From the sequence record NC_049918.1: DNA of 62,020 nucleotides. The stretch is one strand, 5' to 3'. Made by a program: the position numbers. Source of the stretch: Escherichia phage ArgO145. The first letter of the stretch is position 1; every line of letters begins with the position of its first letter. Of this stretch, positions 33,001 through 36,000 are shown in pieces.

Positions 33001-36000
33001 CCGGGTTTTCTCATTTTTCACGAGATGGGAGCGATTTCCCGCGAAGCCGCCTGTCCGGTGCGGTGGTGGAAGAAACCGGATAAAACAACCGCATTGTGCA
33101 AATATCGATCAAATATGGTGCTGCTGTGTGAAATCTGAAAAATCACAGCGGTCATTATGCATCAGTTTTTAACACAGGACGTCAGAACGTGACATGGCAA
33201 AGCTGGACTGGAAAAAGCTGGAGCAGGCATTCCGACGCGAACATGCCGAAACGGGAATAACATTACTGGACTGGTGCCGGAAGAAAAAGATTAATTACAA
33301 CACCGCCAGAACCCGTATAAAAATGGGCAAAATCGATCATGAAATTGATCATAAAACCGATCATGAAATCGATCATGACATCTCAGATGAAGAACCCTGC
33401 AATGACGCGGGTTCCGGCGATGAAAAATGCGCAAAAAACTCTGAAAAAAACTGCGCAAATTCGGCAGAAACGAAACGGATTCGTGGTTCCCGACTTTTAC
33501 CACCTTCAAACGCTTTTTCTCAGCGAAACACCCACGCCGTAAGACACCGTGGATATGCGAAGTATCTTGAGGCAGATAACCTCATGGATGATGCGTCCGA
33601 CATGGTGCTGTTCGATGAACTGGTGTTCACCCGGGCCCGCGCACTTTCAGTAACTAAGGCACTTAAAGGGATGTTCGCCGACCTGGAAGAGGCAACTGAC
33701 GTGGAAACCCGTGTTGCTCTTTACGACAAAATACTCAAAGCTGAACAGGCCCTTGACCGGAATATTGCCCGTATCGAGTCAATTGAACGCTCATTGCTGA
33801 CGCTGGACGTCCTGGCTGAGACAGCACCAAAACTTCGTGCTGACCGGGAAAGAATCAACGCCGCCAGAGATAAACTCAGAGCTGAAACCGATATTCTGAC
33901 CAACCAGCGTCGGGGCGTTGTTACGCCTGTCAGTGACATCGTGTCATCGCTGCATGAAATGAGTAATTCGGGGAGACTGGATGACATTCCGGAAGAATGA
34001 ACCGCGATGTGATGAGCCGTCAGAAATGACCGAGGCTGAACAACGTCTGTTCATCATGACTAAACTGAGCAATCCCTGGTGGCGGCTCAATCATCTCTAC
34101 AAAATACAGAACGAAAAAGGTGAACTGGTCACCTTCAGAATGCGACCGGCGCAGCGCCAGTTGTTCCGGAGCATGCACAATAAAAATATTATCCTGAAAG
34201 CGCGCCAGCTGGGATTTTCCACAGCCATTGATATTTATCTTCTCGACCAGGCATTATTCATTCCGCATCTCAAATGCGGGATCGTCGCTCAGGATAAACA
34301 GGCTGCCAGTGAAATTTTCCGCACAAAAATTGCTGTACCGTTTGATCATCTCCCTGACTGGCTGAGAGCCTCATTCACCATCGTTGAACGTCGTAGCGGT
34401 GCCAGCGGTGGCTATATCCTGTTTGGTCACGGCTCGAGTATCCAGGTGGCAACCTCATTCCGTTCAGGTACGGTGCAGCGCCTGCATATCTCAGAGCACG
34501 GCAAAATTTGCGCGAAATATCCGGCTAAGGCGAAAGAACTGCGAACCGGTACGCTTAATGCCGTCTCTGATGAATGCATTATTTTTGATGAGTCCACTGC
34601 TGAAGGCGTGGGTGGTGATTTTTACGAGATGAGTAACCGAGCACAGGAGATCACTGCATCAGGCTTATTGCTGACGGCACAGGATTATAAATTCCATTTT
34701 TACGCCTGGTGGCAGGATCCTAAATACAGCGCCAGAGTGCCGGAAAGCGGGCTGAAGCTGTCACGGGAAAAAATGACGTATTTTTCTGCGGTTGAGAAGG
34801 CAATGAACATCACGCTTACTGATGAACAGAAGCAGTGGTACATCAATAAGGAAACTGAACAGCGTGAGGAAATGAAGCAGGAGTTTCCCTCAACGCCACA
34901 GGAGGCGTTTCTGACGTCCGGACGACGTGTGTTCAGTGCCGAAAGTACGTTGCAGGCAGAATCATTCTGTTCGCCACCGATGATTGTTTATGACATTGAA
35001 CCTGTTACAGGAGCGAAGACTAAAGCTCAGTCTCTGCGTGAAGGAAATAAAAACGAGTTGCAGCGGACGCTGATGAATTATCTGCTGGTATGGGAACTGC
35101 CGGATCCGGATGAAGAGTATGTTTGTGGGGCAGATACTGCCGAAGGGCTGGAGCACGGAGACCGCTCATCGCTGGATGTTGTCAAACGCAGTAATGGCGA
35201 GCAGGTGGCTCACTGGTTCGGGCATCTCGATGCTGAACTTTTTGCTCATCTCATTTCGCAGGTCTGTCGTATGTATAACAACGCGTTTGTGGGGCCGGAG
35301 CGTAATAATCACGGACATGCAGTTATCCTGAAACTCCGGGAACTCTATCCGACACGTTATATCTACAACGAACAGCATCTTGACCAGGCATATGACGACG
35401 ATACGCCCCGCCTTGGCTGGCTGACAACCCGTCAGAGCAAACCTGTTCTGACCGAAGGAATGAAAACGCTTCTGAATAATGGAATATCAGGGATCCGCTG
35501 GTCAGGCACATTATCGGAAATGAACACCTACGTTTATGACGCGAAAGGCTCCATGAATGCACAGGAAGGCTGCTTTGATGATCAGCTCATGAGCTACATG
35601 ATTGCCCAGGAGATGCGCGCCAGAATGCCGGTGAGGGTAAAACAGAAAACGGATAAACGCAGAACCACACACTGGATGGCTCACTGATGAAAAATGAAAC
35701 TAACACCATGGCGACGAAAAACGACAATGGAGCCACGCCGCGTTTTTCTCAGCGCCAGTTACAGGCGCTTTGTTCTGATATTGACAGCCAGCCTAAATGG
35801 CGTGATGCTGCAAACAAGGCCTGTGCGTATTACGATGGCGATCAGTTGCCACCGGAAGTTCTTCAGGTACTGAAAGATCGCGGTCAGCCGATGACTATCC
35901 ATAACCTCATCGCGCCTACCGTCGATGGCGTTCTGGGAATGGAGGCCAAAACACGGACTGATCTGGTGGTGATGTCAGACGAGCCAGATGATGAAACTGA

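Follow-up and report, generated by a model that had tools for sequence, protein, structure and literature searches.

The genome of Escherichia phage ArgO145 (NC_049918.1; the whole stretch of 62,020 nt that was analysed is referred to here as the window) carries, within its small terminase gene terS, a 12-nt tandem repeat that places four GATC sites within 48 nt. The comparisons reported here suggest that this array is probably the TerS recognition array of a headful packaging (pac) site, a variant of the pac principle of phage P1 realised in a different terminase family. The first-pass annotation of the window had recorded four GATC sites arising from a 12-nt repeat at 33332-33379 in a putative terS, which was borne out by the sequence itself, by Tandem Repeats Finder and by the match of the gene to phrog_370. 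It had also proposed a methylation-sensitive, pac/cos-adjacent element; the pac-like part of that proposal is supported by the position of the array behind a helix-turn-helix (HTH), by frame-independent arrays in relatives, by co-variation with the recognition helix and by weak homology to P1 PacA. The cos part is unlikely, because the class of the large terminase, TerL, is treated as headful (PMC6029569, PMC7317114) and fixed ends were not reported for a phage whose terS is identical (PMC7946995).

The segment 33332-33379 reads ATCGATCATGAAATTGATCATAAAACCGATCATGAAATCGATCATGAC, is translated as IDHEIDHKTDHEIDHD and consists of four 12-nt units, each with a (C/T)GATCA hexamer. The hexamers are exactly 12 bp apart, are separated by six-base spacers that differ from one another, and occupy nt 141-182 of terS (Table 1). 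Across the window GATC is rarer than expected from base composition (161 observed vs 240 expected), and the array is the sole site with four GATC in 48 nt, the 32 YGATCA of the whole window forming no second group of this kind. When 161 GATC were placed at random, a comparable cluster occurred somewhere in 3.4% of trials; since the four GATC sites arise by tandem duplication, this figure is weak alone and decisive neither way, and it is on the comparative data given below that the cluster is judged to exceed chance. A lone CGATCA at 33106-33111, situated 228 nt upstream of the array in a small open reading frame (ORF; 32893-33138), was dropped as part of the element, as it is not conserved in a 933W-type relative (L064). 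An RNA element was likewise rejected: Rfam yielded no match at the locus, and the weak fold (z = -2.2) is a trivial result of the palindromic units.

The 901 bases around the repeat are 100% identical to those of Stx2a-converting phages of the 933W/Sp5 type (PA28, P13771, vB_EcoS_P27 and others), and 220 phage records match the terS region at an identity of at least 90%. The gene was identified as the small terminase by phrog_370 (E 4.8e-125), by its correspondence to L0112 of 933W and by its annotation as terS in the 100%-identical phages; neither TerS nor TerL yielded a Pfam match. It is followed by terL and the portal gene. The array lies in the small-terminase gene of a phage whose terminase is of the headful class, the TerL of 933W being the reference of the 'headful (933W type)' class (PMC6029569, PMC7317114).

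A model of TerS was calculated with AlphaFold2 on 36 homologues. It has three short N-terminal helices (residues 6-20, 24-30 and 35-41; predicted local distance difference test (pLDDT) 74-87), a segment with pLDDT below 50 (residues 45-119) and long, confident helices at residues 127-238. The three N-terminal helices are predicted to form an HTH, an assignment that rests on the model together with PacA and PHROG matches. The repeat begins at codon 47, directly after the predicted HTH, and covers residues 47-62; it is thus predicted to encode the start of a disordered linker, for which reason low constraint at the protein level is expected there. A Foldseek search of the model against PDB returned generic coiled-coil matches only, none with E <= 0.001, and a profile search of PDB sequences with TerS gave nothing meaningful, so that no solved relative was found.

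A protein search yielded 379 TerS homologues from Escherichia, Shigella, Citrobacter, Salmonella, Serratia, Yersinia, Pectobacterium, Dickeya, Aeromonas and others. In their alignment the N- and C-terminal parts are conserved, and the linker is variable and also repetitive, e.g. AQKNAQKSAQID. DNA was fetched for 110 terS loci, 72 of them distinct, most of which are without a GATC cluster and carry a TGCGCA array at the equivalent position instead. The density of TGCGCA in these 72 loci was 21.3/kb in terS nt 120-330 vs 0.42/kb in the remainder of the loci, a difference of about 50-fold. The hexamer is read in three frames: GCG CAA (AQ), GTG CGC AAA (VRK, also LRK) and TGC GCA AAA (CAK), the GCGCAR core being found in codon phases 0, 1 and 2 in 170, 67 and 80 cases, respectively. 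Where Ala-Gln is encoded within the zone, it is written GCGCAR in 170 of 187 instances, and the wobble base in front of it is T in 174 of 187 (93%); outside the zone the corresponding figures are 5/14 and 2/14. Frame independence combined with a constrained wobble base indicates that the hexamer arrays of the relatives are an element at the level of DNA and not a protein repeat. In the Pectobacterium/Brenneria group TGCGCA is replaced by TTCGCA, and Klebsiella phages (Chronis, Wanchaivirus) have TACGCA, in two frames. These arrays resemble the GATC array in position, in number (3-8 hexamers) and in a spacing of about one helical turn, which is 9-14 bp in relatives and exactly 12 bp in E. coli arrays; they differ from it in being devoid of GATC, hence of any Dam input, and in being paired with an ARR[Y/H] or AKRY helix rather than ART[R/Q]. 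One unit of the E. coli TGCGCA arrays is TGATCAAAAAAG, which holds TGATCA and stands in phase with the TGCGCAAAAAAG units. No description of the TGCGCA terS arrays was found in the searchable literature.

The TGCGCAAAAAAG units hold A6G runs resembling slippery sequences (nt ~165-225 of terS in locus L072; also L075 and L083), and the A-tracts, phased at 12 bp, may bend DNA.

The GATC version recurs in Salmonella prophages: four of their terS genes, whose proteins are 57-60% identical to TerS of the window, have 3-5 (T/C)GATCA hexamers at nt 141, 153, 165 onward, i.e., at the positions and with the 12-nt period seen in the window. These arrays encode SDQK, SDHK and NDH instead of IDHE/TDHE and differ in their spacers too, so that the part conserved between the window and Salmonella is GATCA and its register only; every Asp codon in the examined GATC arrays is GAT. 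In both of the longer Salmonella loci measured, the array is the densest GATC cluster. Regarding copy number, natural Stx phages have 3 (LC645410 group), 4 (the window), 5 (L067) or 7 (P0001) units, and partial records possibly 1-2.

Hexamer type and recognition helix vary together. Helices of the form xARR[Y/H][I/L]K are paired with TGCGCA (51 distinct sequences), TART[R/Q]IK with (C/T)GATCA (18 tabulated distinct sequences, to which the Salmonella loci L123 and L124 also conform), SAKRYIT with TTCGCA (6 distinct sequences) and the different HTH of the Klebsiella phages with TACGCA (2 distinct sequences); the split of the helices is mirrored in the set of protein homologues. The first-pass annotation had pointed to terminase genes of related phages as a check, with absence of the repeat from close homologues counting against the idea. 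Such homologues do exist, and as they carry another array together with another recognition helix, their lack of the repeat is no refutation. The helix-hexamer pairing was predicted beforehand for a second family, the phrog_51 small terminases, which share only the N-terminal HTH, and held when nt 100-400 of these genes were scanned. With a TARRYIK helix, Klebsiella phage ST846-OXA48phi9.2 has eight TGCGCA and E. coli phage PHB10 five, those directly after the HTH being in three frames; with TAKRYIK, Providencia phage PSTCR3 carries TGCGAA/TTCGCA, and as these occur in both orientations, they favour a target recognised as double-stranded DNA.

The HTH and the array also appear to travel together. 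When an E. coli terS of the TGCGCA type (L072) was aligned with the window, identity was 100% upstream and over the first ~55 nt of terS, fell to 23-80% across ~33248-33420, a block comprising HTH helices 2-3 and the array, and then returned to ~100%, resuming at the two TGCGCA hexamers downstream (Table 1). By this comparison the HTH and its array are exchanged as one block, as expected of a specificity module.

The closest parallel is the pac site of P1, which consists of 161 bp with seven GATC hexamers; adenine methylation promotes its cleavage, and the methylase of P1 itself is needed in Dam-minus hosts (PMC10028697, PMC12707154). The P1 hexamers lie directly after the HTH-coding part of pacA, where they encode IDH, NDQ, GDH and DDH, and the annotated cleavage points fall between four TGATCA (pacA nt 194-233) and three TGATC(A/G) (nt 324-353). 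Both phages thus have hexamers with a GATC core (TGATCA/G in P1, (C/T)GATCA in ArgO145) within the small-terminase gene, where they follow closely on the segment coding for the HTH and encode D-H or D-Q, and both carry an adenine methylase of their own, the two methylases being of different families. The sites differ in layout: in P1 the hexamers form two irregularly spaced clusters (4 + 3) that flank a cut within ~160 bp, whereas the ArgO145 type has one 12-bp-phased array of 3-7 units. At the protein level, P1 PacA matched TerS by BLASTP with E 0.009, TerS matched phrog_1711 (the PacA family) with E 3.1e-5 and PacA matched phrog_370 with E 1.9e-4; the match is weak and confined to the N-terminal ~55-100 residues, the remainder being unrelated. 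As a control of the comparative method, P1 was set against Cronobacter phage JK004, whose PacA is 70% identical. Of the seven P1 pac hexamers, all but that at nt 194 are conserved in place (six), whereas the residues and the spacers have diverged, with D-H and D-Q in alternation. The comparison of the window with the Salmonella genes gave this signature as well.

Other well-known packaging sites share some of these traits. In lambda, the winged HTH of gpNu1 binds the R elements of cosB, so that here too an N-terminal HTH of the small terminase and repeated short elements in or near the terminase genes position the large subunit; lambda differs in that it packages from cos, is nicked at defined places in cosN and requires integration host factor (IHF), and its R elements are 16 bp long, lie mostly outside coding sequence and follow no GATC logic. 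Headful pac sites are commonly located within terS, as in P22 (gene 3), Sf6 (gene 1) and SPP1, and in SPP1 repeated pacL/pacR boxes are bound by the TerS HTH. The TerS folds and families of these three phages are unlike phrog_370, and none of their pac sites is known to be controlled by methylation. The pac of P22 is a single asymmetric sequence of ~22 bp and not a phased hexamer array (PMC11226127).

From these observations we infer binding, cleavage and the start of packaging in the following way. The N-terminal HTH domains of an oligomeric TerS would each bind one hexamer, and the resulting nucleoprotein complex would recruit TerL, the presumed nuclease and motor, which would cut nearby and so start a series of headful packaging events. 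The protein would tolerate the array because it is written into codons of a disordered linker, and recognition helix and target, lying side by side, would be exchanged together by recombination. As each hexamer contains GATC, both strands would carry N6-methyladenine introduced by the host Dam or possibly by the MT-A70 methylase of the phage. Cleavage by the P1 pacase requires the hexamers to be methylated, and by analogy the methylation state is predicted to govern binding or cleavage in this phage too. Dam dependence of pac has been demonstrated for P1, and for the ArgO145 type it is suggested by analogy only.

The idea of methylation sensitivity is drawn from what is known of P1 and from the presence of an MT-A70 gene in the phage itself (PF05063, E 1.3e-22; phrog_359); in Stx phages this gene bears the annotation 'adenine methylase'. 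M.EcoVT2Dam has been described as an orphan homologue of Dam carried by Stx2 prophages (PMC6602927), and judging from that literature, the MT-A70 enzyme of the window possibly has GATC specificity. Control of packaging by methylation in the ArgO145 type is plausible. A second methyltransferase gene encodes an Eco57I-like gamma-class enzyme (Table 1).

Three other explanations of the array were weighed. It might be a low-complexity linker at the protein level that was expanded by replication slippage, with GATC as a by-product of the Asp-His codons GAT-CAT and no role for the DNA as such. The predicted disorder of the region, the variable number of units among natural isolates and the derivation of all four GATC from the duplication of one unit fit this explanation; against it, the Salmonella homologues retain hexamer and 12-nt register with changed residues and with GAT for every Asp, the hexamers of relatives at the equivalent place are independent of frame with constrained wobble bases, and the hexamer type follows the recognition helix even in a second TerS family, so that we consider it unlikely. 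An improbability of the same order attaches to the array as a TerS binding site for autoregulation of terS/terL, i.e., an operator or roadblock within the gene, with the packaging cut specified elsewhere. A protein that binds within the gene encoding it would suit feedback control, and in sequence analysis a site bound for regulation looks no different from one bound for packaging. However, headful pac sites are commonly found within terS, no separate candidate site was seen, the window having no other cluster of four GATC in 48 nt, and the equivalent P1 hexamers are a functional pac (PMC10028697).

Finally, the array might be a Dam/SeqA regulatory element, acting through sequestration of hemimethylated DNA or the timing of late transcription and unrelated to terminase recognition. 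SeqA binds closely spaced hemimethylated GATC pairs, and four GATC at 12-bp spacing would fit this requirement of at least two GATC within a few helical turns. The TGCGCA, TTCGCA and TACGCA hexamers at the equivalent position in relatives cannot, however, be targets of Dam or SeqA, and the identity of the hexamer follows the TerS recognition helix, which makes this explanation very unlikely, even though host Dam affects 933W lysogeny according to work cited in PMC3342100. Taken on the sequences compared, all three are less consistent than a pac site with frame-independent, helix-matched arrays in relatives.

Several points nevertheless weigh against a pac site recognised by TerS. The four units are recent duplicates and hence not independent evidence, and no exact number of units is required, since copy number varies naturally. 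The co-variation reflects a handful of independent lineages and not 70 independent events, and the helix-hexamer code is not simple, for P1 PacA has an ARRY helix yet GATC hexamers. Unlike P1, the phage has a single cluster only, the nearest other GATC being 228 nt upstream (33107) and 909 nt downstream (34280). The two TGCGCA hexamers that start 58 and 82 nt past the last GATC hexamer (start to start) could replace the second cluster of P1 as a half-site, or could be relics; the first of them (33428-33433) is TGTGCA in one relative (L036) and lost in another (L064), and in Salmonella genes of the GATC type the corresponding TGCGCA is degenerate (L118) or lost (L119). P1 has an IHF site, and a scan of 33100-33600 on both strands for the IHF consensus WATCAANNNNTTR, a consensus scan only, gave no match with at most one mismatch. 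TerL and P1 PacB gave no significant BLASTP alignment (best E 3.7). The MT-A70 gene is present in 165 phage records, in some of them partially, vs 220 records matching the terS region.

The literature on packaging in this group adds to these points. PhageTerm classified Lys19259Vzw, a phage that shares 100% identity with the window over the terS region, as 'Mu-like', with host DNA at read termini and no pac call (PMC7946995), which means that no fixed ends were found. Stx phages have also been called cos phages, without data (PMC7566468), and a survey of the searchable literature for virion-end data, binding data or a defined pac site of 933W-type Stx2 phages found none. Record boundaries were rejected as a clue to the DNA ends, since records of the PV189402 type break in terS merely because of re-linearisation at terL and their annotation text is boilerplate.

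The phages of the 933W type, which spread Shiga toxin genes, have thus been variously termed cos, headful and 'Mu-like', and the candidate pac at 33334-33375, with its four hexamers, is directly testable. It bears on whether these prophages are able to transduce host DNA in the generalised or the lateral mode and on mobilisation driven by pseudo-pac sites, and would offer a handle for packaging-deficient or retargeted phages. The co-variation of helix and hexamer may allow pac sites to be predicted from the terS sequence alone in this terminase class. If gating by Dam were true, these phages would join P1 as a second group whose packaging is licensed by adenine methylation, with a possible tie to the Dam effect on 933W lysogeny, and the GATC cassette of Stx2 phages and of Salmonella toxin-carrying prophages would link the methylation of replicating DNA to the output of phage and toxin phage. 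A wider and more tentative reading, which we hold possible though rather doubtful, is that a portable cassette of a PacA-like HTH and its cognate hexamers in linker codons is common to at least three otherwise unrelated families (P1 PacA, phrog_370 and phrog_51), perhaps with a readable code in which the residue after Ala-Arg/Lys tracks the central bases (Arg with CG, Thr with AT) and with GATC packaging gated by Dam or a phage methylase.

The TerS match stops at residue 55 in seven or more Stx2a prophage records (LC7278xx). In LC727869.1 (L002 3001-3400; ~33383 in the window), the record examined, an insertion sequence, presumably of the IS3 family and IS629-like, with the end TGAACCGCCCCGGGTTTCCTGGAGAG, lies directly after a 3-unit GATC array and truncates terS. 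Judged from the truncation, prophages of this kind should be unable to package, and a pac site at the array, if true, would explain why an insertion there has this effect.

Table 1. Features of the window relevant to the terS array, with positions in the 62,020-nt sequence.
Feature	Position	Strand	Basis or detail
12-nt tandem repeat, GATC array	33330..33382	+	Tandem Repeats Finder: period 12, 4.4 copies, 82% matches, score 78
Hexamer 1, CGATCA	33334..33339		GATC 33335-33338
Hexamer 2, TGATCA	33346..33351		GATC 33347-33350
Hexamer 3, CGATCA	33358..33363		GATC 33359-33362
Hexamer 4, CGATCA	33370..33375		GATC 33371-33374
TGCGCA hexamer, shared with TGCGCA-type relatives	33428..33433		Sequence comparison
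Second TGCGCA hexamer kept in the window, 24 nt past the preceding one	33452..33457		Sequence comparison
Predicted N-terminal three-helix HTH, coding region (aa 6-41; predicted recognition helix aa 35-41, YNTARTR)	33209..33316	+	AlphaFold2; weak reciprocal hidden Markov model and BLASTP matches to P1 PacA
Putative mosaic 'specificity cassette', approximate limits (HTH helices 2-3 and array)	33248..33420	+	L072 comparison
terS, 268 aa, 933W L0112 type	33194..34000	+	phrog_370; annotation; 20-nt overlap with terL
terL, large terminase, 568 aa	33981..35687	+	phrog_2 and other large-terminase PHROGs
Portal protein, P22-like (packaging-module context)	35687..37831	+	PF16510, E 1.4e-128
MT-A70-family DNA adenine methyltransferase	2219..2845	-	PF05063; phrog_359
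Second methyltransferase, 489 aa, Eco57I-like gamma-class N6-adenine, NPPY motif	17519..18988	-	phrog_1600

A prophage with a GATC-type terS on the Salmonella contig AAQIFQ010000056.1 (L123 6047-6862) has a toxin gene of the Pertussis_S1-like (ArtA-like) kind. It lies between the antiterminator and the lysis genes, which is where stx is found in the window.

Elsewhere in the window, Rfam matches at the gathering score comprised STnc100 and the anti-stx2 small RNA AsxR downstream of stx, two minus-strand pairs of C4 antisense RNA and isrK, and three tRNAs that lie upstream of the region of stx; the coordinates listed for these matches are 27216-27475, 4059-4241, 15762-15949 and 25559-25807. Collagen-like tandem repeats with periods of 9, 45 and 99 were found at 43773-44043 in an ORF of 645 aa (42384-44321), which probably encodes a tail fibre. 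A single ORF of 2802 aa near the right end of the window (53465-61873, plus strand) corresponds to the large conserved Stx-phage gene of unknown function; an ORF of ~8 kb has been reported for phi24B (PMC3342100).

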